A stretch of 64,000 bases of DNA from an uncultured Nitrospinaceae bacterium. Lineage in GTDB: Bacteria; UBA8248. How positions within the stretch are numbered: the first letter of the stretch is position 1; every line of letters begins with the position of its first letter. Shown piece by piece: positions 2,413-18,738 of this stretch. The position numbers and the translations under genes were made by a program. Location of the stretch: assembly GCA_964558115.1 (NCBI GenBank), contig CAZLCI010000002.1, positions 507 to 64,506 of the forward strand, given 5' to 3'. Below the pieces are notes generated by a model. The model searched no databases, was not told the origin of the DNA, and was given only the letters and a program-made list of their open reading frames with translations.

Positions 2413-2436
2413 AAAAAAAACGTTATATGAAATTCT

Positions 2437-2826: not shown

Positions 2827-2897
2827 TTCAAAAAAAACTCCTTACTAAGAATTATTAGAAACTCATTTGTCTCCTGATTGCAGTGTTTGGTCTTCAC

Positions 2898-4499
2898 TTA
2901 CTTTTTTTCATTTTCTTTTTGCTCACTTAAATTTTTGGACCAAGCTAAAAGTGTCGAACGCACTATTTCAGCAAAAAAAGAAGGCGGCAATTCGTCGCTA
3001 CTTACCTCCTTTGCCAGCATAAAACATTCACTGGAAAAATCTTTCATCTCTAAAAGATAGAAGAGATACGCATTCTCTTCTAATTGACAAGTCAATCTTC
3101 TAATATAATTTTTATTTTTATAAAGTTCGCTAGTTGCAGTTTTTATAGTCTGTTCTAGAAGTTCGTTATTTTTTTGTTCATTAATTTTCTTGTCCGTTTT
3201 CAATGAATCTATATAAGATTGAACATAAGGTCTAATGAGTTGATCATCAATATACCAACCACTAAAAACCTTATTACTCAGAAGAATACTTGCATCAATT
3301 CTATTGTCATCTTCCGAAGAACAATTCATCACTTCTGTAACTGGATGAATATCCATATCCCCAGATATTTTTTTCTCAACAAGTGTATTTAGTAATAATT
3401 TAGCTCTAGTAAAACCACTTGGAGGAGTTATCCCTAATTTTTCATTCTCCAATTGCGCTCTTTCCAATAACCAGTATGCATAAGAAATTGGAACTTCTAC
3501 AGTAGTAAGAAAGTCTTGTTCTTCTATTTTAGAAAGAAAATTACGAATCTCCTTGGAAGTAGTTTCAACTAGAGATAAATCTTCTATGCCAGATTCAGTT
3601 CTCAAATTAAATTCTGCCAAATAACGACCTTTTGGTTTTTTAGATCGTATGATCCACAATATTTTTCTGCCAGTGCCATCAGTTGAACTACAAATTGCCT
3701 TAGAAATTTCATTTTCCTGAAAAATATTTGAAGTAAGGGATTCTTTTTTAGATTTTTTATTTTTGACATAAACCCCTTTTTTTTCAAGCCGAAAAATACC
3801 CTTTCTTATTAATGACTTAAATTTTTTATCCAAAGACCTCTCATTCAAATTTGCAAGAAAAATTGCAGCATGATTACTACCTAAAGAAACTACTAGATTT
3901 ACTAGATCTGAGGAGAATTTTTGAGATTTCTCAAAAATTTTTTCAAAAACATTAAATAGTTTTTCTATAGACTCAGATTCTCCCTCATTCAAAATTTGAC
4001 GAAAAATAAGAGATTGAGAATGAATAGATAATTTCCCAATACTTTCTTCAAGATCATTACCTTCCTCTTGAGTTAAATTATTATTTAGTAAGAGATGAAT
4101 ATTTTTTGAAATCTCTTCCAAATTATGATCACTTAAGACATCTGGAATAATTGAGGCAGAATCAATAGATAAAATCGTTTCCTTTAGCAATTTTAATTGT
4201 TCTGGTGTCCATTTAAAGGACATTGCCAAATCAAGCAAACTCGGAATAATCTCAGAATTGTTTATTGTTTTTATTGCAAGCAGAGTAGCAGAAACACCGT
4301 TTTCACTGGTGAAATTTAAATGTTCTAACATTCCCTTTAATCCAGAGTCGCCTAATTCCTCGATTTCTTCAATTAAAGGCGCCGGAGCCATTGCATCAGG
4401 AGGCATTGGATTTGTAAAAGATTTTTCCAAAGCAAAAGCTATAGTCCTTGCCCTTTTAAGGTCTTCTCTTATCACTTTATTTTTCTTTGTTTTTTTCAT
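2898..4499 (-). CDS. hypothetical protein, 533 aa, Lys/Glu/Leu-rich, no recognisable domain
   Basis: Long uninterrupted ORF; no motif I can assign, no TM segments, low-complexity charged ends. Confidence 0.45.
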   Translation of the reverse strand: MKKTKKNKVIREDLKRARTIAFALEKSFTNPMPPDAMAPAPLIEEIEELGDSGLKGMLEHLNFTSENGVSATLLAIKTINNSEIIPSLLDLAMSFKWTPEQLKLLKETILSIDSASIIPDVLSDHNLEEISKNIHLLLNNNLTQEEGNDLEESIGKLSIHSQSLIFRQILNEGESESIEKLFNVFEKIFEKSQKFSSDLVNLVVSLGSNHAAIFLANLNERSLDKKFKSLIRKGIFRLEKKGVYVKNKKSKKESLTSNIFQENEISKAICSSTDGTGRKILWIIRSKKPKGRYLAEFNLRTESGIEDLSLVETTSKEIRNFLSKIEEQDFLTTVEVPISYAYWLLERAQLENEKLGITPPSGFTRAKLLLNTLVEKKISGDMDIHPVTEVMNCSSEDDNRIDASILLSNKVFSGWYIDDQLIRPYVQSYIDSLKTDKKINEQKNNELLEQTIKTATSELYKNKNYIRRLTCQLEENAYLFYLLEMKDFSSECFMLAKEVSSDELPPSFFAEIVRSTLLAWSKNLSEQKENEKK

Positions 4500-4649
4500 T
4501 TACTTTTTTAAACGTTAAACCTTCTTATTAAAAAACAATAAAAAAAATAGAAATTTATGTGAATCTTCAGAAATGATAACATCCTAAAGAGTTTTTTGTA
4601 AAAAATGTATCTGTAATCATTGCTTTATAAATTTAAATAGAGGTTTTTT

Positions 4650-5438
4650 TTGGATAGACCTATATATTTTGATGTTGCTTTTAGTTATACCGATGTTCAA
4701 GAACATATTTTAGAAATTAAAAACTGTTTAAAAATACGACATAAAGATGTTAATTGTGCTGTAGTAGATGTTCTTCGTGCGACGACTACTATTATTTCTT
4801 CTTTACATAACGAATGCTCTGAAATTTATCCAGTCATATCGAAAAATGCTGCGAAAATAAAGGCAAGAGAACTAAGAAAAAAAAACATTAAGAAGAAGAT
4901 CTTATTAGCTGGAGAAAAAGATGGAAAAGCTTTAGAAGGATTCGATTTAGGAAACTCCCCATCAAACTTCGAACGTAAGATTGTTGGAAATAATATTCTT
5001 ATAATATCTACTAGTAATGGAACAAAAGCAATTCATGCAGTAAAGGAACAGGAAAACGTTTTCCTTTTCTCTTTAGCTAATTTAAGTGCAACCGCTTCTT
5101 CGATTATGAAACCTATCATGAAAAATTATAACCTCTTAGTTGTTTGTTCTGGAAGAGAAGGAAAGTATTGCGAAGAAGATTTTATAGCTTCTGGACTCTT
5201 AATCAAAAGAATAATTAGTCTTTTCAATGAAAAAGAATATATCTGTTCTGATAGCGCAAAGGCATCTATTCTTATAGCAAATTTCTACAAAGAAGACATT
5301 TATCAAGCGTTATTAGATTGTTCTTGGGGAAAACATTTAATTAAACTAGGCTTAAAAAAAGATTTAGAATTTTGTTCTAGAACAGATTGGTCAAACGTAG
5401 TACCTAAATTTAAAAATGGGAAGATAATTGTATCTTAG
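4650..5438 (+). CDS. 2-phosphosulfolactate phosphatase (ComB)-like protein
   Basis: VDVLRATTTI motif and a size (262 aa) consistent with the ComB family; assignment is tentative. Confidence 0.45.
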   Translation: MDRPIYFDVAFSYTDVQEHILEIKNCLKIRHKDVNCAVVDVLRATTTIISSLHNECSEIYPVISKNAAKIKARELRKKNIKKKILLAGEKDGKALEGFDLGNSPSNFERKIVGNNILIISTSNGTKAIHAVKEQENVFLFSLANLSATASSIMKPIMKNYNLLVVCSGREGKYCEEDFIASGLLIKRIISLFNEKEYICSDSAKASILIANFYKEDIYQALLDCSWGKHLIKLGLKKDLEFCSRTDWSNVVPKFKNGKIIVS

Positions 5439-5444
5439 ACTTCT

Positions 5445-6245
5445 TTAAATTTTAAAAATATTTTCTATTACATCCTTAAAATCTTTTTTAGAATTTTCCA
5501 TATGAAAATGGATAAAAAATTCTCTATTCCCTTTAGTTCCAAGAATCGGACTATCAGTAACGTTACATGGAGAAATACCCAAATCTGTTGATTCTTTTAG
5601 AATATTGAGTAAAACCTCTTTATGTAATTTATGATCTCGAACAATTCCACCCTTGCCAACTCTATTTTTTCCTACTTCAAACTGAGGTTTCACTAAGGCA
5701 ACAATTTCATTAGGAAAAGAAATAAGTTTATGAATCACAGGAAGAATTTTCATAAGTGAAATAAATGAAACATCAATTACAGCAAGTTCAAAATTTTGAT
5801 TACTTTCTGATGAATCCAATATCTCTCTATTTAAATATCGAGCATTAAAACCTTCTATGATCGTTACCCTACTATCGTTTCTTAAACTCCAATCAAGTAA
5901 TCCTTTGCCTACATCAATGCAAACAACATGTGCAGCTTCCCTCTTTAGAAGAACATCCGTAAAACCACCAGTTGACGAACCGACATCCAAACAGGACTTT
6001 GAAATAGGATCAATTTCAAAAAAATCCAAAGCATGGAAGAGTTTTTCTCCACCTCTACTTACAAATTCTCTTTTGCTTTCAGTAATCGAAATTAATGAAT
6101 CTACATCATAGGAGTGGCCAACTTTATCCGCTATCAAACCGTCAACTTTAACAATACCAGAAAGAACTAGTCTCTTTGCACGCTCACGACTTTTAACAAA
6201 ACCTTTATCAACGAGAAGTTTATCTATTCTTTCTTTCTTTTTCAC
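5445..6245 (-). CDS. tlyA: TlyA-family rRNA 2'-O-methyltransferase (S4 domain + FtsJ-like MTase)
   Basis: N-terminal S4 RNA-binding segment (RIDKLLVDKGF…SRERAKRLV) followed by an FtsJ-like SAM-binding region (CLDVGSSTGGFT); the conserved position downstream of dxs. Confidence 0.75.
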   Translation of the reverse strand: MKKKERIDKLLVDKGFVKSRERAKRLVLSGIVKVDGLIADKVGHSYDVDSLISITESKREFVSRGGEKLFHALDFFEIDPISKSCLDVGSSTGGFTDVLLKREAAHVVCIDVGKGLLDWSLRNDSRVTIIEGFNARYLNREILDSSESNQNFELAVIDVSFISLMKILPVIHKLISFPNEIVALVKPQFEVGKNRVGKGGIVRDHKLHKEVLLNILKESTDLGISPCNVTDSPILGTKGNREFFIHFHMENSKKDFKDVIENIFKI

Positions 6246-8152
6246 GAAATGACGCTACGCATGTGATCATCAATATCTACTAGATCACGTGCAGCCTGAG
6301 TTATATCCCCCGATGTTAGACCACAATCCTCTCTCTGCAATACAGGACTACCATGAGAGATGAAACGGTCAGGAATGCCAAGAATAGAGACTGGTATATT
6401 ACTCATCTTATTTTCAGAAAGGATTTCCAAAACACCTGAACCCATACCACCGATTTTCGTCCCCTCTTCTATTGTTACGATTCTCTTACATAAATTAGCC
6501 TGTTCAAGTATTTTTTTCTTGTCCATAGGCTTCACAAATCTGAGATTCAAAACAGAAGCTTGAATTCCTATCTCTTCCAATTGTGAGGAAGCCTCAAGTG
6601 CAAGTGGAACCATTGGACCTAGAGCAATCAATAGCACATCTCTTCCTTCTCTTAGCAATTCTGATTCGCCAATTGGAATACATTTAACTTCATCTTGTAA
6701 TTCGACACCTAAACCAGAACCTCTACAAAAACGAAGGGCTGCAGGGCCAGGATATTCTATCGATGTGAGAAGCATACTTTGTAATTCGTACTCATCCTTT
6801 GGTGACATGACAACTGCGTTTGGCAAACATCTTAAATAAGCTATATCAAAAGCACCATGATGAGTAGGTCCGTCTTCTCCAACTAAACCCGCTCGATCTA
6901 TTGCAAAAGTTACAGAAACATTAGTAAGACAAATATCGTGAACTATCTGATCATAAGCTCTTTGTAAAAAAGTACTATAGATTGCAACAACTGGCTTCAT
7001 ATTCTCTAAAGATAGTCCAGCTGCAAATGTTACCCCATGCTGTTCACACATTCCGACATCGAAACATCTATCAGGAAAAAGACTCTGATATTCAACTAAA
7101 GCTGTACCTTCCAACATAGCTGCAGTGATTGCCACTATCTTAGGATCCTTCTTGCTCAATTTAATCATTGTATCTGCAAAAACTTTAGAATAACTTGGTG
7201 GACCTGGCTTCTTTTTAAGAAATTTTCCAGTTTCAGGATCAAATTTTGTAACACCATGATAGGTAATTGGCTCGGCTTCACTATATGGATAACCATGCCC
7301 TTTTTTAGTAACGACATGTACTAAATTAGGACCTTTTAATTTGCGGACATTTCGTAAAGCTGGAATTAACAGATCTAATCTATGACCATCAATAGGACCT
7401 ATATAACGAAAACCTAATTCTTCAAATAGGATTCCAGGAACAAATAAATTTTTCATGGAATCTTCAAATCTTGTCATGAAATTAACAGCAGATTCACCAA
7501 AAACAGGAAGATGAGAGACAATTTTTTGTATTTCATTTCTAAACTTTCTCGCACGATTAGCCCATTCTCCAGTCATGATCCTTGCGAGGTAGGAACACAT
7601 AGCACCAACATTTTTTGAAATACCCATTTTATTGTCATTTAAGATTACTGTTAAATCTCTCTTAGAATCCCCCGCATTATTTAATGCTTCCATAGACATC
7701 CCAGAGGTAAGACTCCCATCTCCAATAATTGCAACAACACTAAAATCTTCTTTACTTAGATCTCTTGCAGTTGCTATTCCAGATGCTGCAGATATCGAAG
7801 TACCTCCATGAGCAACATTCATATGATCATATGGACTTTCTAGTCTATCTGGAAAACCAGCAATTCCTCCCCACTGTCTAAGAGTTTCAAATTCCTTTTT
7901 TCTTCCAGTCAAAACCTTATGTGCATAAGCCTGATGTCCAACATCCCAAATAAGTTTGTCAGTAGGTGTCTCAAAAACATAATGCAAAGCAACCACTAGC
8001 TCAGCAGCACCTAAAGATGCTCCCAAATGTCCACCAGTTCTAGAAGTAACACCAACAATAAATTCTCTTAGTTCTTCCACTAAAGTTTCAAGTTCATTTT
8101 CAGATAATTTTCTAAGATCTTCCGGAGAATCTATTTTTTCCAGTTTTTTCAC
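6242..8152 (-). CDS. dxs: 1-deoxy-D-xylulose-5-phosphate synthase
   Basis: 636 aa; the TPP-binding GHLGASLGAAELVVALHYVF and GDGSLTSGMSMEALNNAG motifs, a transketolase-like C-terminal domain. Confidence 0.9.
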   Translation of the reverse strand: MKKLEKIDSPEDLRKLSENELETLVEELREFIVGVTSRTGGHLGASLGAAELVVALHYVFETPTDKLIWDVGHQAYAHKVLTGRKKEFETLRQWGGIAGFPDRLESPYDHMNVAHGGTSISAASGIATARDLSKEDFSVVAIIGDGSLTSGMSMEALNNAGDSKRDLTVILNDNKMGISKNVGAMCSYLARIMTGEWANRARKFRNEIQKIVSHLPVFGESAVNFMTRFEDSMKNLFVPGILFEELGFRYIGPIDGHRLDLLIPALRNVRKLKGPNLVHVVTKKGHGYPYSEAEPITYHGVTKFDPETGKFLKKKPGPPSYSKVFADTMIKLSKKDPKIVAITAAMLEGTALVEYQSLFPDRCFDVGMCEQHGVTFAAGLSLENMKPVVAIYSTFLQRAYDQIVHDICLTNVSVTFAIDRAGLVGEDGPTHHGAFDIAYLRCLPNAVVMSPKDEYELQSMLLTSIEYPGPAALRFCRGSGLGVELQDEVKCIPIGESELLREGRDVLLIALGPMVPLALEASSQLEEIGIQASVLNLRFVKPMDKKKILEQANLCKRIVTIEEGTKIGGMGSGVLEILSENKMSNIPVSILGIPDRFISHGSPVLQREDCGLTSGDITQAARDLVDIDDHMRSVIS

Positions 8153-8207
8153 GATAAATAAATCCTAAAAATAGGTACTTGCAAATTTAAAAAATCATAA
8201 CTCAGAA

Positions 8208-9134
8208 CTAGAGACTACGGAAAACTATAAATTTTGCAAGAGCCTCTAAAGTTTCAGCATCTTTTCCAAATATTTTCAAAAAATCTAAAGACCTCTCTAA
8301 AGTAGAATTAGCTATCTCCCTTGATTTTTCTATGCCATACATTGACAAATAAGTAGTTTTCCCAGAAGCAAGGTCGGAGCCAATCGGCTTCCCTAATAAA
8401 TTTTCGTCTCCTTCAAAATCAAGTATATCGTCGACAATTTGAAATGCTAACCCAATATATCTACCAAAATTGCTCAATGCATTTTGCTCATCTTTATTAG
8501 CACCTCCTAATATTCCACCCATACAAACGGAAGCACGAATCATTTCAGAAGTCTTGAGAAGATGCATTCGATCCAAATACTTTGGATTTACTTTAATCGG
8601 ATCTGCTTTTATATCTAAATATTGACCACCTACCATTCCTGAAGGCCCTGCTGCTGAAGACAAAAGTGAGATAGAATCTATCAATTTTTCTGAACCAAAT
8701 TTTTCTTTCATTTTTTCAGAAGATATAAGTTCAAAAGCCCTTGTTAAAAGACCATCTCCGGAGAGTATGGCGGAAGCTTCTCCAAAAGCTTTATGGCTAG
8801 TAGGCTTTCCTCTTCTCAAGTCATCATCGTCCATTGCTGGCAAATCATCATGAATCAACGAATAAGAATGAATACATTCTATTGCGCAAGCAGGAATCAA
8901 TACATCATTCGGATTACCTTTTACTGACTCACATCCAGCTATACACAGAATCGGTCTGATCCTTTTTCCTCCATTTAACAAGCTATAAGACATGATCTTA
9001 TATAATTCTAACGGTTCAGATTGTTCATTAGAAAATAAGATTCTCAATTGTTCATTAACTAATTTATTCCACTTTTCCATATAACCTAGGACATCAAATG
9101 ATGATGACAAATTATTCTTCCTCACTTTCTTCAT
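8208..9134 (-). CDS. ispA: farnesyl/geranyl diphosphate synthase
   Basis: The two polyprenyl synthase aspartate-rich motifs (LIHDDLPAMDDDDLRRGKPT and FQIVDDILDF). Confidence 0.85.
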   Translation of the reverse strand: MKKVRKNNLSSSFDVLGYMEKWNKLVNEQLRILFSNEQSEPLELYKIMSYSLLNGGKRIRPILCIAGCESVKGNPNDVLIPACAIECIHSYSLIHDDLPAMDDDDLRRGKPTSHKAFGEASAILSGDGLLTRAFELISSEKMKEKFGSEKLIDSISLLSSAAGPSGMVGGQYLDIKADPIKVNPKYLDRMHLLKTSEMIRASVCMGGILGGANKDEQNALSNFGRYIGLAFQIVDDILDFEGDENLLGKPIGSDLASGKTTYLSMYGIEKSREIANSTLERSLDFLKIFGKDAETLEALAKFIVFRSL

Positions 9135-9381
9135 CCAAAGGTTTCACAGAAAATGTTCCATCATCAGCTATCGTTAGTTCTTCAATTTTTTTCTGAGCAG
9201 AATGTAACTGATTTTGCGTAAACTTAAATAATTTCACGCCTTCTTCATATAAAGAAATCGCACCTTCCAGACTCAGATCTCCATCTTCCAAAGTTTCCAC
9301 AATTTCTTCTAGTCGAGCAGATGCATCCTCAAAACTCTTTGGCGAATCAAAAGATGGTTTCTTTTTTTTTGAAGAACTCAT
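9112..9381 (-). CDS. xseB: exodeoxyribonuclease VII small subunit
   Basis: 89 aa; FE(E/D)…LEEIV..LE.G.L.LEE..L..EG motif; lies between xseA and ispA as in many bacteria. Confidence 0.8.
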   Translation of the reverse strand: MSSSKKKKPSFDSPKSFEDASARLEEIVETLEDGDLSLEGAISLYEEGVKLFKFTQNQLHSAQKKIEELTIADDGTFSVKPLDEESEEE

Positions 9382-10772
9382 TTTGTTTCTCCTTTTTGAT
9401 TTATTTTTTCAACCCTACAATCCAAAGCTCCATCGGACAATTTAATTTGAAGCAATTCTTGATTCTCTACTTGTTGTATGCTGCGAATTAAGGAGTGATC
9501 TTTTTCCCGATACGTCAAACTATATCCACGTGCTAAAATTGAAATTGGAGAAACAGATTCGAGTCTAAGAATTAAATTTTTTACTTCTAAGTTCTTTGCA
9601 TGGAATATTTTTTCAATACAAATTTCAATTCTTTCAATATATCCCTCCATTGTTTTAACTTTACTTGAATGAAGACTCAAAGGAGAAACAACTCTCAGTC
9701 TAGGCAAAATTGAGAAAACACGATTCCTGAAAACTGACAAGACATACTTGGTTTCTTTTAAAAGATTTTCAAAAAGCATATCAATTTTTTGCTGCAGTTC
9801 CTGAATATACAGAGTAGGTTCTTCTAATATTCTCATCCTCTCATAAAAAGCAACTTCATCTTTTCTGTTCTTTAGAATCATCTTAACGTATCGTTCCATC
9901 TCAGAGGGAAATCTCATGAAACGTTCTAAAATAATATCCCAGTTGCTGCATACTTTTTCAGCAGCCGCAGTAGGTGTCGAAGAAAAATCATCTGCAACTA
10001 AATCGGACAGCGAACTATCAATTTCATGACCAATAGCTGTTAAAATTGGAATGCTACAATTGTCAATAGCCCGAATAACTATCTCATCATTAAATGCACT
10101 GAGATCTTCATTACTTCCTCCGCCTCTAGAAAGGATTATTAGATCAGCAGGAGAATTCATTCTATTGTTTTCTTCGGCAACTAGAAGAGCTCTCTCAATA
10201 GATCTTGGAGCAAATTCTCCTTGGACAAGTGTATGAATGATTGTTAATTCCACGAAAGGAATGCGCATTGATAAAATTGGAAGCATGTCACGTAAAGCTG
10301 CTCCTTCACGACTTGTAACTAAAATAATTTTTTTTGGTCTTAATGGGATTTTTTTTTTCCTTTCCTTAGAAAAAAGGCCTTCTAATTCTAATTTCTCTCT
10401 TAATTGTCTAAATTTTACATCTAAAATTCCTTCTCCTAATGGTTCCAAAGAGAAAATAGATAATTGGAATCTACCCTCCCGCTCAAAAAGAGTCACACTA
10501 CATTTAACCAAAACTCTCATCCCCACTTCAGGAGTAAAATCAAGAGACTTTCTTCTACCTGCAAACATAACTGCATTTATTTTTGAATTAGAATCCTTTA
10601 AAACAAGATATGCATGATTCGATGGATATACCTTCCAACTTGATATCTCTCCTTCGACCAAAATATTAGTGAATTCTTGTTCAAGATGTTCTCGAACTCT
10701 CGAATTAAGTTGAGAAATTGTATATATTTGGGCTGCAAATTCTTTCGTGGAACCTAACAAATCAATATTCAA
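9378..10772 (-). CDS. xseA: exodeoxyribonuclease VII large subunit
   Basis: 464 aa; N-terminal OB-fold (VEGEISSWKVYPSNHAYLVLKD), a central catalytic region and a C-terminal coiled-coil; overlaps xseB by 4 nt. Confidence 0.85.
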   Translation of the reverse strand: MNIDLLGSTKEFAAQIYTISQLNSRVREHLEQEFTNILVEGEISSWKVYPSNHAYLVLKDSNSKINAVMFAGRRKSLDFTPEVGMRVLVKCSVTLFEREGRFQLSIFSLEPLGEGILDVKFRQLREKLELEGLFSKERKKKIPLRPKKIILVTSREGAALRDMLPILSMRIPFVELTIIHTLVQGEFAPRSIERALLVAEENNRMNSPADLIILSRGGGSNEDLSAFNDEIVIRAIDNCSIPILTAIGHEIDSSLSDLVADDFSSTPTAAAEKVCSNWDIILERFMRFPSEMERYVKMILKNRKDEVAFYERMRILEEPTLYIQELQQKIDMLFENLLKETKYVLSVFRNRVFSILPRLRVVSPLSLHSSKVKTMEGYIERIEICIEKIFHAKNLEVKNLILRLESVSPISILARGYSLTYREKDHSLIRSIQQVENQELLQIKLSDGALDCRVEKINQKGETK

Positions 10773-10784
10773 TCAATTATTCCT

Positions 10785-11654
10785 TTAAGTCACTAAAATA
10801 TGATCTTGAAATGCATTTACTGTATTGACCATTAACATAGATATAGTCATAGGACCAACTCCTCCTGGTACTGGAGTTATAGCCGAGACTTTTCCCATTA
10901 GTGATGCAAAATCACAATCTCCTACCAACTTGTCATCTAGTCGGTTCGTACCAACATCTACAACTATAGCTCCCTCCTTTACCATCTCTGCAGTCACAAA
11001 ATTTGCCCTGCCAACTGCAGCAATCAATATATCTGCTCTTTTCGTTACCTCAGCAATATCTTCTGTTCTAGAATGACATATAGTTACAGTCGCATTCTCA
11101 TGTAACAAAAGAATGGATAATGGAAGACCGACTATTTTACTCCTTCCGATTATAACAACATTTTTTCCTTCTATTGGAAAATCATAGAATTTCAATATTT
11201 CAAGTACCCCAGCAGGGGTACAAGATTTAGGACCTGGTTGTTTTAAAGATAACTTTCCAAAGTTTTCACTGTGGAAAACATCAACATCTTTTAATGGATC
11301 AACTTTTTTTAGGATTTCTGTTTCATTCAAAGTTGACGGTAGAGGTAATTGAACAAGTATTCCGTCAATTTTTGAATCCTGATTTAATTTTTCTATCAAA
11401 TCAGATAACTCTTCAAAAGAAACATCAGAGGACAATCTATAATCGTATGTTTCTATTCCAATTTTATCTGCCATTTTACCTTTTAGTCGAACGTAAACCT
11501 GAGATGCAGGATCATCTCCAACTAAAATAACGGCTAAACCCGGAGATCTGCCTGAGGATTCTTTTAATTTTTCAATTCTAGAAACGAGCACTTCTATTAT
11601 TTTGTCAGATACCGGTTTGCCTTTCATTATTAACGTGTCTATCTTTTTATTCAT
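10785..11654 (-). CDS. folD: bifunctional methylenetetrahydrofolate dehydrogenase/cyclohydrolase
   Basis: 289 aa; PGLAVILVGDDPASQVYVRLK and GVGPMTISMLMVNTV hallmark motifs. Confidence 0.9.
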   Translation of the reverse strand: MNKKIDTLIMKGKPVSDKIIEVLVSRIEKLKESSGRSPGLAVILVGDDPASQVYVRLKGKMADKIGIETYDYRLSSDVSFEELSDLIEKLNQDSKIDGILVQLPLPSTLNETEILKKVDPLKDVDVFHSENFGKLSLKQPGPKSCTPAGVLEILKFYDFPIEGKNVVIIGRSKIVGLPLSILLLHENATVTICHSRTEDIAEVTKRADILIAAVGRANFVTAEMVKEGAIVVDVGTNRLDDKLVGDCDFASLMGKVSAITPVPGGVGPMTISMLMVNTVNAFQDHILVT

Positions 11655-11816: not shown

Positions 11817-12485
11817 ATGAAAAATTTTATACATGCAGTTCAAACTGATATAGATGCAGCTCTTCAAAGAGACCCTGCTGCTAATAGTAAGATAGAAATC
11901 ATCCTCTGCTATCCGGGATTTCATGCAATTTTTTTACATCGTATTTCACACTTCATTTTCAAAAAAGGATTAAAGTTAGTTGCACGATTTTTGAGTCATA
12001 TAAGTAGACTACTTACAGGTATTGAAATTCATCCAGGAGCACAGATAGATATCGGTTTTTTTATAGACCATGGGATGGGAGTTGTAATTGGAGAAACTTC
12101 TATTATCGGAAAGAATTGCACAATTTATCATGGAGTAACTCTTGGTGGTGTAAGTCTAAAAAAAGAGAAGAGACATCCTACCCTTGAAGATGGCGTTTTA
12201 GTTGGAGTTGGAGCACGTATACTTGGTCCTCATAAAATAGGAAAAGGAGTTAGAATCGGTGCAGGTTCAGTAGTTATCTCTGATGTCCCTCCTGATTGTA
12301 CAGTTGTAGGAGTTCCTGCACGGATTATTTCAGGATTAAGTGAAGAATATAATGAAGAAGATCCAAAAATTTCTTTTGAACACGACGAACTTCCAGATCC
12401 AATACAAAATTCTATTTACCATTTAGACAAAAGAATAGAAGACCTTGAAAAAAGAATGAAAGATGAGGAGACTTCTAATCAATGA
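11817..12485 (+). CDS. cysE: serine O-acetyltransferase
   Basis: The classic CysE N-terminus (DIDAALQRDPAA…CYPGFHAI…HRISH) followed by hexapeptide-repeat left-handed beta-helix (IHPGAQIDIGFFIDHGMGVVIGETSIIG). Confidence 0.85.
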   Translation: MKNFIHAVQTDIDAALQRDPAANSKIEIILCYPGFHAIFLHRISHFIFKKGLKLVARFLSHISRLLTGIEIHPGAQIDIGFFIDHGMGVVIGETSIIGKNCTIYHGVTLGGVSLKKEKRHPTLEDGVLVGVGARILGPHKIGKGVRIGAGSVVISDVPPDCTVVGVPARIISGLSEEYNEEDPKISFEHDELPDPIQNSIYHLDKRIEDLEKRMKDEETSNQ

Positions 12486-13639
12486 AAAGAATTTATTTAG
12501 ATCACAACTCCACAACACCTGTACGTCCTGAGGTGTTCAAAATTGCGGAACCTTACATTACAACTTTTTACGGAAATCCAAGTAGCGTTCACTCTTTTGG
12601 AAGAGAAACTAGAGAAGCAATAGAAAATTCGCGTATTAAAATAGCATCTAGTATAAATGCTTCTGATCCAAATGAGATATTTTTTACTTCTGGTGGAACT
12701 GAGAGTGACAATCTCGCAATTAGGGGAGTTTTAAATAATGAAAAATCACCCTCACATATTATTACAACTCAAATCGAACATAATGCTGTTTTAGATACCT
12801 GCAATAACCTTAGCAAGGAAAAATTGTTAGAAGTTACATATATAAAACCTGACAAAGATGGTTTAGTATCTTCAAAAAAAATAAAAGATGCAGTGAAAAA
12901 AAATACAAAATTAATATCAGTAATATTGGGTAATAATGAAATAGGTACTATTCAACCAATTTCCGAAATTTCAACATTTTGTAAAGATTTAGGAATATTA
13001 TTTCATACAGACGCAGTACAAGCTGTTGGAAAAATGAAAATTGATGTGCAAGGAGATAATATCGATTTATTATCTGGAAGTGGACACAAAATTAATGCTC
13101 CAAAAGGTATTGGTTTCCTTTATGTAAGAAAAAAGACTCCTTTGAATGCAATTCTAACTGGAGGAGGACAAGAACAAAACATAAGATCAGGGACTGAAAA
13201 TGTAGCCGGTATAGTTGCACTAGGTGAAGCATGTAGAATTTTAGATACAGAAGGAAATGAACTTTGGAATAATATTTTAAAATTGAGAAACAGACTAGAG
13301 AATGAGGTTTGTGAAAAGATTCCTGATGTAGAGATTATTGGGCATAAAACACAACGTCTACCCGGAACATCAAATATCGCATTCCTAAATGCTGAAGGAG
13401 AAACTTTATTAATTAGACTAGATCTTGAGGGGATAGCCGTCAGTACGGGTTCAGCTTGCAGTTCTGGTTCAACTGAACCAAGTCATGTCTTACTTTCAAT
13501 GGATCTTCCACAAAATCTTGTGCGTGGTTCTCTTCGTTTTAGTCTGGGCTGGGGAAGTACTGATGAAGATATTGACTATTTAATAGAAAAGTTACCTACT
13601 GCCGTTAAAAAAGTTAGAGAAATTGCACCAAAGAACTAG
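12482..13639 (+). CDS. NifS/IscS-type cysteine desulfurase (PLP-dependent)
   Basis: 385 aa; SGGTESDNLAIRG, a PLP-lysine region (SGSGHKINAPKGIGFLYVRK) and the catalytic-loop Cys (VSTGSACSSG); overlaps cysE by 4 nt. Confidence 0.85.
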   Translation: MKRIYLDHNSTTPVRPEVFKIAEPYITTFYGNPSSVHSFGRETREAIENSRIKIASSINASDPNEIFFTSGGTESDNLAIRGVLNNEKSPSHIITTQIEHNAVLDTCNNLSKEKLLEVTYIKPDKDGLVSSKKIKDAVKKNTKLISVILGNNEIGTIQPISEISTFCKDLGILFHTDAVQAVGKMKIDVQGDNIDLLSGSGHKINAPKGIGFLYVRKKTPLNAILTGGGQEQNIRSGTENVAGIVALGEACRILDTEGNELWNNILKLRNRLENEVCEKIPDVEIIGHKTQRLPGTSNIAFLNAEGETLLIRLDLEGIAVSTGSACSSGSTEPSHVLLSMDLPQNLVRGSLRFSLGWGSTDEDIDYLIEKLPTAVKKVREIAPKN

Positions 13640-13662
13640 TTCTAAACTTCAATAGGTGAAAA

Positions 13663-14043
13663 ATGAACAATAGTAACTATCATTACAATTCTACTGTACT
13701 TTCACATATTGCATCACCTCAAAATATTGGTATTCTAGAAGACGCAAACTATACAGGGAAAGGAACTAATCCCTCTTGTGGCGACGAGGTAGAATTATAT
13801 ATAAATACAAATGGAGAAAAGATTACTGATGCTAAAATTAAAATTCTTGGGTGTGGAGCTATCACAGCCGCAATGAGTTCACTAACTAATTTGCTTATAG
13901 GCAAATTAATTCAAGATGCAAAAAAAATATCCTCTGAAGATATTGAAAAGAGTTTAGGAGGACTGCCTCAACACAAACGTCATTGTTCTAAATTAGCATA
14001 TAGAGTCCTCCAAAATGCACTAAATAAATCTGAAAATGAATAA
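13663..14043 (+). CDS. NifU/IscU-type Fe-S cluster scaffold
   Basis: 126 aa; the three scaffold cysteines in SCGDEV, LGCGAI and HCSKLA contexts. Confidence 0.8.
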   Translation: MNNSNYHYNSTVLSHIASPQNIGILEDANYTGKGTNPSCGDEVELYINTNGEKITDAKIKILGCGAITAAMSSLTNLLIGKLIQDAKKISSEDIEKSLGGLPQHKRHCSKLAYRVLQNALNKSENE

Positions 14044-14521
14044 AATTTCAAAAAAAGACCCTTTGCAAATTCAAATAATTAAAAAAGACCTTATAGAAGG
14101 TTCGGGTATTTTTACACAGGGTGACCCCACTCCTGAGAAAATAGGGTTATTAAGAGGTCAATTTCTTAAATTAACCAATCATCTCGAAATCTTGGACGGA
14201 GACTGTTATGGTTTGCTATCTCCTAACTATAGTTACAAAACCTTTATTCTGAAAAAGTATTTTCAGTCAAATCTTAAAGATTTTACTGCAATCCAAATTA
14301 AAGCAAACTCATACGCAGTAGGCATTCATGAAGGAAGTTATCGAAATTTATCTCAATCGCAAGAAGAGATCTTCAAAAAAATTAAAGAAAAAGGTTTAAA
14401 AAAAACAAACGGCCCTATAGTCCACCGTTTCATGAATGACCCCAGAAAAACTATAATCCAAGACCTTAGAACAGAAATATGGGTAGCAGTAATTCAAAAG
14501 GATTCAACTATATCTTCTTGA
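14036..14521 (+). CDS. hypothetical protein, possibly GyrI-like small-molecule-binding domain
   Basis: 161 aa; no strong motif. The C-terminal …TEIWVAVI… resembles the end of the GyrI-like fold. Weak. Confidence 0.35.
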   Translation: MNKISKKDPLQIQIIKKDLIEGSGIFTQGDPTPEKIGLLRGQFLKLTNHLEILDGDCYGLLSPNYSYKTFILKKYFQSNLKDFTAIQIKANSYAVGIHEGSYRNLSQSQEEIFKKIKEKGLKKTNGPIVHRFMNDPRKTIIQDLRTEIWVAVIQKDSTISS

Positions 14522-17456
14522 TTTTACATAACAGACTTTTCAAATTTGTCTGACCTGAGAACGGATCTCTCTGTTCTTTACTGGTTAGAAAATTAACTGA
14601 ATACCAAGGATTGTAAGGTTGTTTTTCCCCCCATCCAATCGGTATAAAAACAGCATCTTTTCTAATTCCACTATAAAGGTAAGCTCTGGCAGTTATTTTT
14701 CCATGGGCTGACTCAATCTGAATAATTTCTCCATCTTCTATATCTAATTCCCTGGCATGTTCGGGATGAATTTGACAAAAAAGGTCAGGCCACATTTCTT
14801 GTGCTTCCCAAAAATAGTGGGTCCAACTGTGAAAATGTGGTGCAGGAGGCCTTCCAGTTATTAATTCAGTATCAAAACCCCTTTGCCTTAAATCTCTAGA
14901 AAAACTCTTTTCTTCTGTTGAGATTATTTTTGCTTTAGATGTCCCAGTGGGGACATCATAAAATGGAGAAATCACGTCTAATCTTTCATCATTATCTGCA
15001 ATTTCCAGGAAGGGTAAATCTATTAGAAGTTCTGGATCTGAGTAAAATTCGGGTAAAGCAGACAGACCTAAACAATTAAATTTTTCCTCTAACTCTTTAG
15101 TCCAAAACTCTAGTTTTCCACTTTCTGTTGGGAATCTTTTTCCTTCTGGTTGACCTACTGCTGTTGTCCCTTCTAAGTAAAGGGTTTCTTGTTCAAGAGA
15201 ATCTTCATATTTCACTGGATATCGAACCCATCTATAAGGAACTGAATGCAATCGTTTCTGGGTTATTCCACTAAGGAAGTCATTTTTTATACACATTTCA
15301 TCCCAAAATATTTTCGGGTCTTTATATTCTTCCTTAAGAACATCATTAAATCCTAAACGTTTTCCTAATTCTATCCATATCCAGCCGTCAGGCTTCGCCT
15401 CTCCAGGAGGATCTATGAATTTATCAATCCATACAATTCGTCGATCATCATTACTTCTTCCTATTTCTCCTTTTTCAATTCCCGTTGCTGCAGGCAACAC
15501 ATAATCAGCAAATGCAGAAGTTTCATTTTGAAACAACTCAATATGCACTAGAAGATCTAAGTTCTTTAAGGCATCTCTAACATTATTCTGATCTGGCCAT
15601 TGAGCTAATGGATTACTTGAACTTATCATTCCTTTTATAGGATAAGGTTTCTCGTGTTTCATTGCATTAAGCCAACCGACAGGACTCTTTCTTATTTTTG
15701 GTCTGTTAATCTTTTCTCTTCTTTCTAATGGAGCATTTGGGGCAATAGGTGGACCTGCCGTCATATTGAAATAAGCTCCTCCTTTTCGTCCCCAATTACC
15801 TGTAATAGCGCTTACAAACATCCAAGCTCGATTAGTTTGCAATGAATTCATATGTTGATTTATACCTCTACTTGCAAAAATCACACATCCATCTGATTTA
15901 GCAATCTCACTTGCAAGTAATTCAATTTCGTTTTGAGATAAATCGATTATTTCAGATGCCCATTGCGCACTATAATCTTTCTCAAAAATAAAATTTTTCC
16001 ACTCTTCCCATCCTAAAACCCAATCATTGCAAAACTTAATATCATGCAAATTTTTTGAAAAAATCTCGTGAGCTATTGATAAAGCTAATGCCATATCTGT
16101 TCCAGGACGTATTGGCAACCATTTATCTGCTTTACTAGCTGTGACAGTCTGCCTAGGATCAACAACAACCATTTTTGCTTTATTTTTAACTCTCCAATCA
16201 TTAATCTTTCCAAAATAAACTGGGCGTGTTTCAGCTTGATTATCTCCTACATAAAGGTACATCTCTGCGCTTCCAAGATCAGTCGATGTATAACTATTTC
16301 CACTTCCATTTACTCCCTGAGTAATCTGATAAGAAATTGTTTTCCCAGAAGCACAAAATGGGTCAGTACCTTCAATGTTATGAGTTCCCCACATCTGACT
16401 AAATAATCTGGTATAACCTTTCTGAGTAAGAATGCCAGTTCTAGTACCAATAAAAATGGCGAGTGCTTCCGGTCCCCATTTCTCTTTTAACTGACTCAAC
16501 TTTCCAGCAATTTCATCTAATGCTTTCTCCCAAGTAATCTCTTCAAACTTATTTTCACCTCTTTTCCCTACTCTTTTCAGAGGAGTTCGAAGTCTTTTTT
16601 CATTATGATGAAGTTGTAATCCAAATTGTGCTTTAGGACATATTTTTCCCTCTAAGATAGGATCTTCATCATTACCAGTAATTTGCACTAGTTTGTCATC
16701 TTTAAAATGAAATTTTGTAGTACAGCAATTAAAGCAAATATTACAACCACCCGGTTCAATCCTCGTTTTAATCTTACTATCTTTTTCAAAACCAAATGGA
16801 AAATTTGACTCTAATTTTTTAGGTGAAAGAGGTCTATTTTCTAAATCAGACTTTTGAAACCCCATTCCTCTTTGGATATATTTTTTTTCCATTATCGGAA
16901 GAGATGAACTGTAACCTTTTAACCTCTCTAAATAAATTGTCTGCGGTTTAAGCAAAAAACTATCTACATCTTTAATAACTCTCTCTTCTTTTTCAGCGAT
17001 TTCAAGTAATTCTGAACGTTCTCCAAAAGTAATAGCAAATCCTGGGCATACACTAGAACAAGCTGGTTCTAGTTTATGTTCAAGTCTCTCAGAACAAAGG
17101 TCACACTTAACAGAATGATGTCCTTCTTCATCAAAACCCATAGCACTATAAGGACAAGACAAAATACATTCCCCACATCCTGTACATAATTCTTCATGGA
17201 CTTTTACTACACCAGTCTTATCATCTTTTGTTATGGCTTTCGGATTTACAGGACATGATCTAAGACAAGCAGGTCGTTCACAATGTTGACACGTTAACGT
17301 AAAGAAATCTGTACCCGGACCATTTTCATTTCCAAGCCATACAACCTTATTCCTATATGTACCCGGTTTTAGATGATGCTCTTGCTTACATGCTGCCTCA
17401 CAACTTTTACAACCGAAACATCTTTCTAAGTCAATCATTAGTGCTAGTCGATTCAA
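14508..17456 (-). CDS. molybdopterin (MopB-family) oxidoreductase catalytic subunit fused N-terminally to a 4x[4Fe-4S] ferredoxin (FdhB/PsrB-like) domain
   Basis: 982 aa. The N-terminal ~200 aa carry four Cys clusters (CFGCKSCEAAC, CQHCERPACLRSCP, CTGCGECILSCP, CDLCSE…CSSVCP). They are followed by the MopB N-terminal FeS motif (CNICFNCC…C), the molybdopterin dinucleotide-binding regions and a probable Cys Mo-ligand (GTDPFCASGK, NapA/PsrA-like rather than FDH Sec/Cys-His). Confidence 0.8.
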   Translation of the reverse strand: MNRLALMIDLERCFGCKSCEAACKQEHHLKPGTYRNKVVWLGNENGPGTDFFTLTCQHCERPACLRSCPVNPKAITKDDKTGVVKVHEELCTGCGECILSCPYSAMGFDEEGHHSVKCDLCSERLEHKLEPACSSVCPGFAITFGERSELLEIAEKEERVIKDVDSFLLKPQTIYLERLKGYSSSLPIMEKKYIQRGMGFQKSDLENRPLSPKKLESNFPFGFEKDSKIKTRIEPGGCNICFNCCTTKFHFKDDKLVQITGNDEDPILEGKICPKAQFGLQLHHNEKRLRTPLKRVGKRGENKFEEITWEKALDEIAGKLSQLKEKWGPEALAIFIGTRTGILTQKGYTRLFSQMWGTHNIEGTDPFCASGKTISYQITQGVNGSGNSYTSTDLGSAEMYLYVGDNQAETRPVYFGKINDWRVKNKAKMVVVDPRQTVTASKADKWLPIRPGTDMALALSIAHEIFSKNLHDIKFCNDWVLGWEEWKNFIFEKDYSAQWASEIIDLSQNEIELLASEIAKSDGCVIFASRGINQHMNSLQTNRAWMFVSAITGNWGRKGGAYFNMTAGPPIAPNAPLERREKINRPKIRKSPVGWLNAMKHEKPYPIKGMISSSNPLAQWPDQNNVRDALKNLDLLVHIELFQNETSAFADYVLPAATGIEKGEIGRSNDDRRIVWIDKFIDPPGEAKPDGWIWIELGKRLGFNDVLKEEYKDPKIFWDEMCIKNDFLSGITQKRLHSVPYRWVRYPVKYEDSLEQETLYLEGTTAVGQPEGKRFPTESGKLEFWTKELEEKFNCLGLSALPEFYSDPELLIDLPFLEIADNDERLDVISPFYDVPTGTSKAKIISTEEKSFSRDLRQRGFDTELITGRPPAPHFHSWTHYFWEAQEMWPDLFCQIHPEHARELDIEDGEIIQIESAHGKITARAYLYSGIRKDAVFIPIGWGEKQPYNPWYSVNFLTSKEQRDPFSGQTNLKSLLCKIKKI

Positions 17457-17482
17457 TTCTAATCCTTTTTTCTAAGACAATG

Positions 17483-18262
17483 CTATTTAGATATGTGCCA
17501 CCAGTATATATCAGAGCCATCAGAAACATAACTAGCAAAAAAAGTAACCACAATTATATGAGCAATAAGACCAAGAAAAAAAATAATCGATAAAGATATA
17601 TGAATCGATCTCCAAAAACGAATGAAAAAACTATGTTCAAATCTTTTTCTAATATAAAAGTTTTCTTGACGAACTAAATTATAAAATCGAATGGCAAAAA
17701 TAGGATGACAAAACCAATGTTTAAGATTAAGAGAAAAAGTACCTTCGTTACTATCAGGCTCAAAAGATAGTAATAATTTTTCTTTCTTTGTAATTATCGA
17801 TTCTATTTTTGCTTTGTCATCGGGTTCTATAGTATGAAAAAATCGAATTTTTGAAGAAAAAATTTTTTGATTATTCTTAGAAACATAAAATCTTGCAAAA
17901 ATCCCTAAGAGTGTAAGAGCCAATAGTGCTAAAAGGAGTAATGCTGGTGCATACCTTAAATGACCAGATGAGTGAATTGTAACTAAGACAGAACCAATTA
18001 CAGCTGTTACCACATGACAATTAAACCAAAAAACTGGCTTCTTACTTACGTTTGTTCTCTTAAGGAATAAGAAAACAATAGAAAAAGAGAGAAACAAGGA
18101 ACCAATCACACCGAAAATATAAAGTACCGGAGAACCCGGCATATGCCACATAGATGGCAACAGATGTAAAAATGAGAAATATCCAAACAAACTAAGAGAA
18201 GCTATAGATATAAGATATGTAAGTAACCTATCGTGAATTGACAAAGACTTCTTATTCTTCAT
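17483..18262 (-). CDS. integral membrane protein (candidate membrane anchor/cytochrome-b-like partner of the oxidoreductase)
   Basis: 259 aa; about four N-terminal hydrophobic helices containing conserved-looking His (HLLPSMWHMPG, VTIHSSGH) plus one C-terminal helix. Immediately upstream of, and co-directional with, the FeS-MopB gene. Confidence 0.45.
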   Translation of the reverse strand: MKNKKSLSIHDRLLTYLISIASLSLFGYFSFLHLLPSMWHMPGSPVLYIFGVIGSLFLSFSIVFLFLKRTNVSKKPVFWFNCHVVTAVIGSVLVTIHSSGHLRYAPALLLLALLALTLLGIFARFYVSKNNQKIFSSKIRFFHTIEPDDKAKIESIITKKEKLLLSFEPDSNEGTFSLNLKHWFCHPIFAIRFYNLVRQENFYIRKRFEHSFFIRFWRSIHISLSIIFFLGLIAHIIVVTFFASYVSDGSDIYWWHISK

Positions 18263-18738
18263 TCAAATTCTATTTTTGAAACTTCAACAATCTCAAAAGT
18301 TCTGATACCACCAGGCAGTTTAATCACTACCTCGTCCCCAGGTTCCTTCTGCATTAATCCTCTTGCAAGAGGAGCATTGAAAGAAATAATACCATTAGAC
18401 AAGTCACTTTCTTCTTCACCAAGAATTTGGTAGGTCAGTTCTTCATTCTTGTCAATATCATAAAGTTGAACCTTAGTACCAACGGAAACTTTATCTCCAG
18501 AAACAGGCAGTTCTTCAATTATCTGTGCAGTTCGTATTTTCTCTTTCAGTCTACTTACTTCGTGTTGTAAATTTCTTTGGAGTTCAATAGCAGCTTCCCA
18601 TTCTGCATTTTCACTTAAATCACCAAGATCGGCGGCTTTTCCGATTTCTTTTGCGACATCATGTTTAAGACGATGTTCTATTTCTTCAACCTTATTTTTT
18701 AAATTGATTAGACTTTGATTTGTTAAATAAAATGTCAT
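18259..18738 (-). CDS. greA: transcription elongation factor GreA
   Basis: 159 aa; N-terminal coiled-coil with the conserved acidic tip (GDLSENAEWEAA) and the C-terminal FKBP-like domain. Confidence 0.85.
   Translation of the reverse strand: MTFYLTNQSLINLKNKVEEIEHRLKHDVAKEIGKAADLGDLSENAEWEAAIELQRNLQHEVSRLKEKIRTAQIIEELPVSGDKVSVGTKVQLYDIDKNEELTYQILGEEESDLSNGIISFNAPLARGLMQKEPGDEVVIKLPGGIRTFEIVEVSKIEFE

Follow-up and report, generated by a model that had tools for sequence, protein, structure and literature searches.

A ferredoxin-molybdopterin oxidoreductase fusion paired with a predicted dihaem membrane cytochrome in an uncultured Nitrospinaceae bacterium

Introduction

Respiration and the cycling of elements depend to a large extent on complex iron-sulfur molybdoenzymes (CISMs), whose subunit plans are regarded as well catalogued. 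The polysulfide reductase PsrABC is periplasmic and Tat-exported, and it is built of separate A and B subunits on an eight-helix, haem-free anchor of the NrfD type. In NarGHI, a catalytic module facing the cytoplasm sits on a five-helix dihaem cytochrome b that crosses the membrane with electrons; NarG is a type II clade member with an Asp ligand, and NarH contains a [3Fe-4S] cluster. Iron-sulfur modules are covalently fused to a MopB protein in ActB of alternative complex III, where the MopB-like part comes first and the molybdenum bis(pyranopterin guanine dinucleotide) cofactor (Mo-bisPGD) has been lost, and in ForC (YjgC) of the Bacillus subtilis ForCE. SoeABC of Allochromatium vinosum and Ruegeria pomeroyi, which passes electrons from sulfite to quinone, consists of three separate subunits, namely a cytoplasm-facing MopB protein, a four-cluster ferredoxin and the haem-free, NrfD/PsrC-like membrane protein SoeC (cited in PMC5373536). 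A purified DUF4405 protein binds haem b, and models show four central His residues resembling those of MsrQ-like and PepSY-like cytochromes (PMC11334425). Here, we analyze a two-gene module in a 64,000-nucleotide stretch of DNA from an uncultured Nitrospinaceae bacterium (contig CAZLCI010000002.1 of assembly GCA_964558115.1; hereafter the window, in which all coordinates are given). One gene encodes a ferredoxin domain and a molybdopterin catalytic domain in a single polypeptide, and the other a small membrane protein. A full-text literature search returned no published description of the fusion or of its family. The two genes appear to represent a large, tightly conserved family for which no published characterization was found and whose subunit plan is absent from CISM catalogues.

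The fused subunit

On the minus strand of the window, the ORF list contains a run of close-packed genes composed of greA, a 259-aa open reading frame (ORF) and a 982-aa ORF. The latter (14508-17456, stop included) begins with a TTG codon preceded at 7 nt by an AGGA ribosome-binding site, and Pfam matches and homologues support it as a gene. The 259-aa ORF (17483-18262) lies immediately upstream on the same strand, and the 26-nt spacer between the two contains the AGGA. These positions and the common direction agree with a first-pass annotation of this DNA, which had drawn attention to the pair at 14508-18262.

The 982-aa protein is a member of the MopB/DMSO-reductase superfamily according to its domain scores, its FS0 motif and its Mo-ligand Cys. 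Pfam identifies Fer4_11 at residues 50-147, Molybdop_Fe4S4 (PF04879) at 238-283, Molybdopterin (PF00384; 167.5 bits against a gathering threshold of 24) at 288-700 and Molydop_binding (PF01568; 74.4 bits against 26.8) at 865-974. Among the NCBIfam models, the first ~150 residues match DmsB, TtrB and NrfC-type subunits, and the remainder of the chain matches many MopB catalytic subunits. The N-terminal PsrB/DmsB-type ferredoxin domain (residues 1-170; 16947-17456, minus strand) is defined by Fer4_11, by the DMSO_dmsB, TtrB and NrfC models and by a match to PsrB in the PDB (2vpw_B, E 6e-25). Its 16 Cys residues form CxxCxxCxxxC-type groups (C13/16/19/23, C56/59/64/68, C91/94/97/101 and C118/121/133/137), which we read as the ligands of four [4Fe-4S] clusters. 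The 16-Cys, four-cluster type of ferredoxin expected of a CISM is thus present, but as a fused domain and not as a separate subunit. A linker (residues 171-234; 16755-16946, minus strand), recognizable by variable alignment columns and by a pLDDT below 50 for residues 182-219, leads to the MopB (Mo/W-bisPGD) catalytic domain (residues 235-982; 14508-16754, minus strand), which was delineated with PF04879, PF00384, PF01568, an AlphaFold2 (AF2) model and Foldseek.

The catalytic domain carries the FS0 [4Fe-4S] motif C238-x2-C241-x3-C245...C273 (16638-16745, minus strand; codons checked), which falls within the PF04879 match, and the predicted Mo ligand C368 (codon 16353-16355, minus strand) in the motif TDPFC368ASGK. 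C368 aligns with Cys173 of Thermus PsrA, which we take to be the Mo ligand of that enzyme. R530 aligns with PsrA R332, presumably the position of the conserved active-site Arg, and T338 with PsrA His145. All 16 ferredoxin Cys, the FS0 residues C238, C241, C245 and C273, and C368 are invariant in alignments of 13 and 54 members, in which the mean column identity is 74-76%. The first-pass annotation had proposed a Cys ligand in an FCASG context, as opposed to the Cys/Sec-His pair of formate dehydrogenases (FDHs), and the invariance of C368 and its alignment with PsrA bear this out. The AF2 model of the fusion has a pTM of 0.86 and a pLDDT of ~90 over the catalytic domain, and a Foldseek search with this model returns the MopB fold with TM-scores of up to 0.83 normalized to the target.

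No twin-arginine motif is found at the N-terminus (MNRLALMIDLERC), which opens directly with the first cluster motif, and the family consensus is likewise devoid of one. Because such a signal is missing and because the membrane partner has a predicted cytoplasmic insert (see below), the Mo site in all likelihood lies on the cytoplasmic face of the membrane. The first-pass annotation had also seen no obvious Tat signal and had expected a cytoplasm-facing enzyme.

A word-indexed search of 5.8 billion proteins with the window's protein returned at least 120 clusters of 967-1006 aa with 60-92% identity over 99-100% of the query, and the names of the clusters listed in this search are limited to 'molybdopterin-dependent oxidoreductase' or a JGI double COG label. 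A second query, the homologue from a Pseudohalocynthiibacter plasmid, returned its own cluster and at least 119 more (950-1008 aa, 59-85% identity). Many of these are from Gammaproteobacteria and a few from cultured strains, with Halomonas sp. GXIMD04776, Modicisalibacter ilicicola DSM 19980 and Terasakiella sp. A23 being the cultured carriers listed. The total is at least 240 listed clusters, all with the same fused Fer4 + MopB domain set and with 59-100% identity to one or the other query. When 1.84 billion 50%-identity representatives were scanned exhaustively with HMMER, a single full-length one (P0038) stood for the whole family.

The best 80 species-representative genomes with the fusion are all metagenome-assembled genomes (MAGs), labeled Nitrospinota, Alphaproteobacteria (including Rhodospirillales, Hyphomicrobiaceae, Methyloligellaceae and Thalassobaculaceae), Betaproteobacteria/Burkholderiales and Tectomicrobia. 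The closest relatives of the window's protein come from a Nitrospinota MAG (L006, 87% identity) and a metagenome contig (L092, 92%). In a rough neighbor-joining tree, which is indicative only, the Nitrospinota sequences are nested among proteobacterial ones, and this nesting suggests that Nitrospinota acquired the module by transfer.

Since there are close unfused relatives, such as P0132 in locus L086, whose MopB gene is immediately preceded by a ferredoxin gene, the fusion could in principle be an artefact of assembly or a frameshift that merged a B and an A gene, as the first-pass annotation had also considered. However, the same frame and a ~60-residue linker are shared by at least 240 clusters and ~160 contigs from different phyla and studies, and because of this family-wide conservation we attach practically no weight to such an artefact. 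The fusion is therefore genuine. Its description as unusual stands in comparison with textbook complexes but not in view of the large and tightly conserved family to which it belongs.

Outside the family, the proteins nearest to it are unfused and rare, and beyond them identity falls to ~33%. In the closest of these, P0132 (50% identity; L086, JGI 3300019487 contig, 2193-11458), a 196-aa ferredoxin gene lies directly upstream in a B-then-A order. The A-first order, which the first-pass annotation had used as its point of reference, is consequently a poor guide to the ancestral arrangement. The genes around P0132 encode CoA-transferase subunits, a POR-like 2-oxoacid oxidoreductase and an acyl-CoA synthetase, with no membrane partner seen at this locus, and they hint that this branch acts on an organic acid or a CoA ester. 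Tat signals are found in the distant unfused proteins P0136 and P0137 (41-42% identity; SRRTFLK and NRREFIK, respectively) and are absent from the closest unfused ones, P0132 and P0133; the gene cluster of P0136 is of a periplasmic type, has the A-then-B order and includes a NarJ-like chaperone. There is one more ferredoxin-MopB fusion with the B-A order, P0153/P0283 (983 aa), one partial cluster member of which is named as coming from a Dehalococcoidia bacterium. Its identity of only 33% suggests an independent origin, so that the same fusion would have arisen at least twice.

The membrane partner

A jackhmmer search over all ORFs located a homologue of the 259-aa protein directly upstream of the fusion gene, on the same strand, in 81 of 85 genome loci, and the remaining four end within 121 nt of the fusion start. 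The same arrangement is found in 76 of 80 metagenome loci, the other four being cut at the contig end, and four more loci, whose carriers are cultured or gammaproteobacterial, show it as well. The small membrane protein with His residues that the first-pass annotation had pointed out is hence an obligate partner, whose gene immediately precedes the fusion gene wherever the contig extends far enough. When 213 neighboring ORFs were clustered all against all and their Pfam domains counted, the result was no third conserved gene, chaperone or transporter and only lineage-specific synteny, and no NarJ/TorD-type chaperone is present among the listed neighbor families.

At normal thresholds, the partner has no match in Pfam (none at E ≤ 0.01), NCBIfam or the PDB, and the MRS2 matches that were the only result of a PDB profile search were rejected as being at chance level. 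Five helices are predicted, which in the AF2 model span residues 9-34, 45-69, 76-97, 105-136 and 212-248, the last two being separated by an insert that is itself helical; the mean pLDDT of this model is only 65. Helices 3 and 5 contain four His residues that are 100% conserved in 69-70 homologues with identities of 30-77%. These are H83 (18014-18016) and H97 (17972-17974) in helix 3, the codons of which were checked, and H221 (17600-17602) and H235 (17558-17560) in helix 5, all on the minus strand. Both pairs (17972-18016 and 17558-17602) have an i/i+14 spacing and are predicted from their conservation to be axial haem ligands.

A permissive Pfam scan of 70 homologues matched DUF4405 in 65 of them (best E 8e-08) and, weakly, Ni_hydr_CYTB in nine (E ≤ 5). 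The match of the window's partner to DUF4405 (PF14358; E 0.018) covers residues 215-237 and its 16 bits fall below the gathering threshold of 26.7, so that by score the protein is not a member of that family, but it does possess the DUF4405 trait of four central, most-conserved transmembrane His residues. Given the gene pairing, the four invariant His and the weak DUF4405 matches, the partner is likely to belong, as a distant member, to the group of bis-His dihaem cytochromes b in membranes and to bind haem b. It differs from the DUF4405, MsrQ-like and PepSY-like cytochromes in having five and not six helices and a 90-residue cytoplasmic insert, and in being coupled to a cytoplasmic MopB enzyme instead of ApbE-flavinylated or periplasmic partners. 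By Pfam, the partner matches none of the known CISM anchor types (NrfD/PsrC, NarI, FdnI and DmsC). The first-pass annotation had regarded it as a candidate quinol-interacting anchor; it is indeed a membrane partner, but a putative dihaem cytochrome b wire is the better description.

The insert of ~90 residues between helices 4 and 5 (residues 128-215; 17618-17881, minus strand) is K/R-rich and was delimited from the positive-inside count, the AF2 helices and the invariant columns, which include K160, E173, S177, P187 and E200. The family means of Lys plus Arg are 3.8 in the N-terminus, 2.8 in the loop between helices 2 and 3 and 14.7 in the insert, versus 0.8, 1.4 and 0.6 in the other segments. 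Under the positive-inside rule, these counts predict an N-in, C-out topology with a cytoplasmic insert, in which helices 3 and 5 would run parallel to each other. H83 and H221 would then form a pair on the cytoplasmic side and H97 and H235 a pair on the periplasmic side, and the insert would serve as the docking surface for the fused enzyme.

Two further conserved features of the partner are H182 in the insert (17717-17719; 91% of homologues) and the periplasmic C-terminal W254-W255-H256 (17495-17503; 96-100% of homologues). They could mark a quinone or acceptor site.

Relation to known molybdoenzymes

For the fusion protein, every NCBIfam equivalog model scores less than half of its cut-off. 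The top match is Fdh-alpha (TIGR01591; 314 vs 666 bits) and the second PhsA (287 vs 694), with NasC (240 vs 1100), DmsA/YnfE (217 vs 778), NapA (152 vs 904), ArrA (149 vs 1600) and FdnG (138 vs 814) among the others. Membership in the PhsA, Fdh, Nas, Nap, Arr, YnfE/F, Dms, Tor, BisC and QrcB families was rejected, as each of these models stays below its cut-off. The top 25 NCBIfam matches contain no sulfite-dehydrogenase model, and none of the ten nearest 50%-identity representatives reaches any curated model. A position inside a characterized clade, which the first-pass annotation had left open, is thus at variance with all curated models. The best PDB sequence matches are PsrA (E 2.6e-62) and PsrB (E 6e-25) of Thermus thermophilus (2vpw), whereas the best Foldseek matches are FDH, Desulfovibrio NapA, ForC, PsrA and acetylene hydratase, all with ~20% identity.

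A membrane-bound cytoplasmic formate dehydrogenase would be in keeping with Fdh-alpha as the top NCBIfam match, with the FDH structures at the head of the Foldseek list and with R530 at the position of the active-site Arg. However, the Fdh-alpha score is below half of its cut-off, the identity to FDH structures is ~20%, and in 159 scored loci the ligand Cys is followed by Ala, Ser, Asp, Gly or Asn and never by His (residue 369 of the window's protein is Ala). We assume that FDHs carry a His directly after the ligand Cys; its absence argues against this enzyme, which we regard as highly improbable.

PsrABC and PhsABC resemble the module in the Cys Mo ligand at the aligned position, the FS0 cluster, the four-cluster ferredoxin and an Arg, R530, which aligns with R332 of PsrA. 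A polysulfide, thiosulfate or tetrathionate reductase of the Psr/Phs/Ttr type would also explain why PsrA and PsrB are the best PDB sequence matches and PhsA the second NCBIfam match. Nevertheless, the B and A parts are fused here, the RR motif is missing, the anchor has five helices and four His and is not of the NrfD type, PsrA His145 is replaced by the aligned Thr338, and the MopB domain is only ~22% identical to PsrA in the Foldseek alignment. In addition, the PhsA and ArrA scores are far below their cut-offs, the hosts are aerobes, and the substrates of such reductases are periplasmic. The chance of such a function, which the first-pass annotation had suggested, is slight.

The module shares with NarGHI a cytoplasm-facing catalytic part on a five-helix, predicted dihaem cytochrome b. 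It differs in the clade and in the Mo ligand, which is Cys, and NarI (PF02665) has the opposite topology and a different His spacing; no Pfam scan of the partner, including the permissive one, matched PF02665. With the Nap and Nas scores below cut-off as well, the protein does not belong to the Nap, Nas or Nar groups. As to the covalent fusion of Fe-S modules to MopB, the order in ActB is opposite to that found here. In YjgC (PDB 8rqz), only the MopB part (chain 263-789) aligned with the query (236-757), and a PDB search showed no match between the N-terminal part of YjgC and the PsrB-type ferredoxin domain of the fusion.

Electron path and substrate

We propose that the two genes encode a membrane-bound, cytoplasm-facing CISM of a new build. 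Electrons would pass from Mo-bisPGD at Cys368 to FS0 and on through the four [4Fe-4S] clusters of the fused ferredoxin domain, which would dock via the cytoplasmic insert of the partner. They would then proceed from the cytoplasmic-side haem b (H83/H221) to the periplasmic-side haem b (H97/H235) and end in the quinone pool or in a periplasmic acceptor. This architecture and the electron wire are very probable. The analysis shows the domain content, the cofactor-binding residues, the lack of an export signal, the strict gene pairing and the conservation throughout the family; inferred are how the His residues pair, that docking takes place via the insert, which way the electrons flow and what the substrate is.

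Clues to the substrate come from the neighborhoods of the family members, in which the ligand motif, read in 159 loci, falls into classes. The 'CA' class, TDPFC-A-xxK, comprises 111 loci including the window, Nitrospinota and Burkholderiales. The 'CS' class, TEP(Y/F)C-S-xGK, comprises 37 alphaproteobacterial loci, whose proteins are ~60% identical to that of the window, and four loci of the cultured and gammaproteobacterial group have C-D. In 23 of the 37 CS loci, a gene for a TauD/TfdA-family dioxygenase is found immediately upstream of the partner gene, with a 4-nt overlap in L068-L070 and L074/L076 according to the ORF maps. The best PDB match of these TauD-like proteins is 3pvj (E 1e-65), with RdpA and AtsK, a sulfate-ester dioxygenase, next in rank. 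Thirteen TauD-linked CS loci also have a gene for a 180-aa cupin just upstream; this protein has no Pfam or NCBIfam match, and its sole PDB matches are 3-mercaptopropionate, cysteine and mercaptosuccinate dioxygenases (E 7e-07 to 5e-04). TauD-type enzymes release sulfite from sulfonates, and thiol dioxygenases make sulfinates. Six CA loci (L061, L062, L067, L133, L135 and L136) have a gene of the TauE/SafE sulfite-exporter family 4-11 nt downstream of the fusion gene, and two more have a TauD-like gene at a distance of 1.8 kb upstream. TauE exports sulfite (Weinitschke 2007, cited in PMC5373536).

The cupin, the TauD-like protein, the cytochrome and the Fd-MopB fusion are encoded in an operon-like run in L068-L070, L073, L074 (cupin at L074:1820-2368) and L076, and the same cupin run is seen in the metagenome loci L138, L139, L142, L143 and L147. 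It may represent a pathway from thiol to sulfinate, sulfonate and sulfite.

This linkage to TauD-like, thiol-dioxygenase-like and TauE proteins points to an S(IV) substrate, for the conversion of which to S(VI) a Mo oxo-transferase is the obvious catalyst, and PsrA/PsrB as the closest solved structure by sequence was counted toward the sulfur link as well. Hence, our favored explanation is that a cytoplasmic S(IV) compound would be oxidized to S(VI) and the electrons passed outward through the cytochrome. The reaction would be sulfite to sulfate or, in some clades, organic sulfinate to sulfonate upstream of TauD. We put the probability of this explanation as a whole, comprising the build, the electron path and the outward oxidation of S(IV), at roughly 40%. 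For the window's own protein, an S(IV) dehydrogenase function is the most likely one but tentative. Functionally, the enzyme would be an analogue of SoeABC, from which it differs in the anchor. It is possible, if doubtful, that the enzyme represents a hitherto unrecognized third class of bacterial S(IV)-oxidizing enzyme after SorAB/SorT and SoeABC, consisting of one Fd-MopB polypeptide on a dihaem cytochrome b that resembles DUF4405. Such a class would be widespread among Alpha-, Beta- and Gammaproteobacteria of marine, freshwater and soil habitats and would have been transferred into Nitrospinota. A sulfur-oxyanion role had already been suggested in the first-pass annotation. It is still the best lead, but its basis is now the TauD, thiol-dioxygenase-like and TauE linkage in related clades.

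Several observations weigh against this explanation. A transmembrane dihaem wire classically runs the other way, as in NarGHI, and a low-potential donor such as sulfite needs none. The sulfur-type neighbors occur in only ~8 of the 111 CA loci and not in the window. The strong linkage is confined to the sister CS clade, which differs from the window's class in the residue after the Mo-ligand Cys (C-S vs C-A). For the TauD-like proteins, taurine dioxygenase is the best-scoring model, but its 233-252 bits are below the cut-off of 313, and the TauD/TfdA and TauE families also handle non-sulfur substrates. One cultured locus of the C-D class (L088) has an NAD(P)H:2Fe-2S reductase gene in the operon, which hints at electron input. 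The likeness to SoeABC was drawn from its description and not from the SoeA sequence, and the trait in common is the cytoplasmic orientation, i.e., the lack of a Tat signal. The locus counts include some duplicated contigs, as some metagenome loci repeat genome loci, and the ORFs are the longest ORFs. Finally, no published biochemical or genetic data were found for any member of the family.

If electrons flow inward, the complex would be a redox-loop reductase similar to Nar, in which quinol is oxidized near the periplasmic haem and the electrons travel through the two haems and five Fe-S clusters to a cytoplasmic acceptor of high potential such as nitrate, chlorate, selenate, tetrathionate or an S- or N-oxide (DMSO, TMAO, methionine or biotin sulfoxide). 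The cytoplasm-facing Mo domain on a five-helix dihaem b subunit follows the logic of NarGHI, and the predicted topology fits. The hosts are mostly aerobes, there are partial matches to the NasC, NapA, DmsA and BisC models, NapA is among the best Foldseek matches, and the GbcB-like NAD(P)H reductase in the Pseudohalocynthiibacter plasmid operon is suggestive of electron input. On the other hand, ~165 neighborhoods contain no recurrent nitrate/nitrite, DMSO/TMAO or selenium genes, and a NarJ/TorD-type chaperone is not found adjacent to the module. The recurrent TauD, thiol dioxygenase and TauE neighbors make or export S(IV), in agreement with an oxidizing enzyme, and DUF4405/MsrQ-type cytochromes are described as outward electron carriers (PMC11334425). 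We consider such a reductase, which is the main rival of the favored explanation, unlikely.

The same described role of the DUF4405 clan in extracytosolic electron transfer (PMC11334425), together with the weak DUF4405 similarity of the partner, would also suit an exporter resembling NOX or MsrQ, in which a cytoplasmic substrate is oxidized and the dihaem protein reduces a periplasmic protein or cytochrome c and not quinone. A cytochrome c gene is present upstream of TauD in L080, and the periplasmic C-terminal WWH motif (W254, W255, H256) is conserved, but no gene for a periplasmic acceptor is conserved beside the module. An exporter of this kind, which is a variant of the favored S(IV) oxidation and differs from it only in the final acceptor, appears quite improbable.

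Genomic context

The module is bordered upstream by greA (18259-18738, minus strand; identified by GreA Pfam and NCBIfam matches), which is outside the conserved module and adjoins it in Nitrospinota-type loci only. The greA stop overlaps the ATG of the partner gene by 4 nt (18259-18262), and in L001 there is a 5-nt gap between them. The overlap indicates that in the window's lineage this elongation factor is probably co-transcribed with the respiratory-type enzyme.

On the other side, cysE-nifS-nifU (11817-14043, plus strand) are convergent with the module. Between them and the module lies an ORF for a 161-aa GyrI-like/Cass2 small-molecule-binding protein (14036-14521, plus strand), which overlaps the 3' end of the fusion gene convergently by 14 nt and is syntenic in Nitrospinota-type loci. 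The first-pass annotation had taken the proximity of cysE-nifS-nifU as a hint at sulfur or selenium oxyanion chemistry. This argument fails because these are housekeeping Fe-S assembly genes that converge on the module from the opposite strand and keep this position only in Nitrospinota-type loci, being absent from proteobacterial ones.

No second MopB gene and no TauD, TauE or thiol-dioxygenase gene is present in the 64-kb window, and no tRNA, tmRNA or Rfam family was detected across it. A promoter and terminator scan found no more sites than in shuffled sequence. The GC content of the window is ~34%, and TTG or GTG starts are frequent among its genes.

In 13 freshwater Burkholderiales loci (L036, L040, L042-L046, L048, L049 and L053-L056), a gene for a ~900-aa Pat-like protein acetyltransferase (CoA-binding, ATP-grasp_5 and GNAT domains) is located directly upstream of the module, which is probably lineage synteny. 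The module of Pseudohalocynthiibacter aestuariivivens (L088) is carried by the mobilizable plasmid pRR4-35_5 (NZ_CP049042.1, 9255-36167), where it lies in an operon behind a LysR regulator and the GbcB-like NAD(P)H:2Fe-2S reductase. The island also contains betB and genes for a Rieske protein, an amidohydrolase, a betaine/choline ABC transporter, a second MopB enzyme (733 aa) and, 6 kb from the module, a member of the 'putative sulfate exporter family'.

Implications

The plan described here, with fused B-A subunits on a predicted dihaem DUF4405-like cytochrome, lies outside the CISM catalogue. Across phyla, the module retains at least 60% identity, and the many genomes that carry it are nearly all from uncultured organisms. 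The few cultured carriers, which belong to the sister C-D class, make it testable. Even without a substrate, the module provides a natural partner for an orphan cytochrome family. If the oxidation of sulfite or sulfinate proves true, it would explain how many aerobic bacteria dispose of the S(IV) derived from taurine-type sulfonates and would supply a missing step in the flux from organosulfonates to sulfate in oxic waters. For some Nitrospinota, it would constitute a sulfur-linked entry point for electrons.

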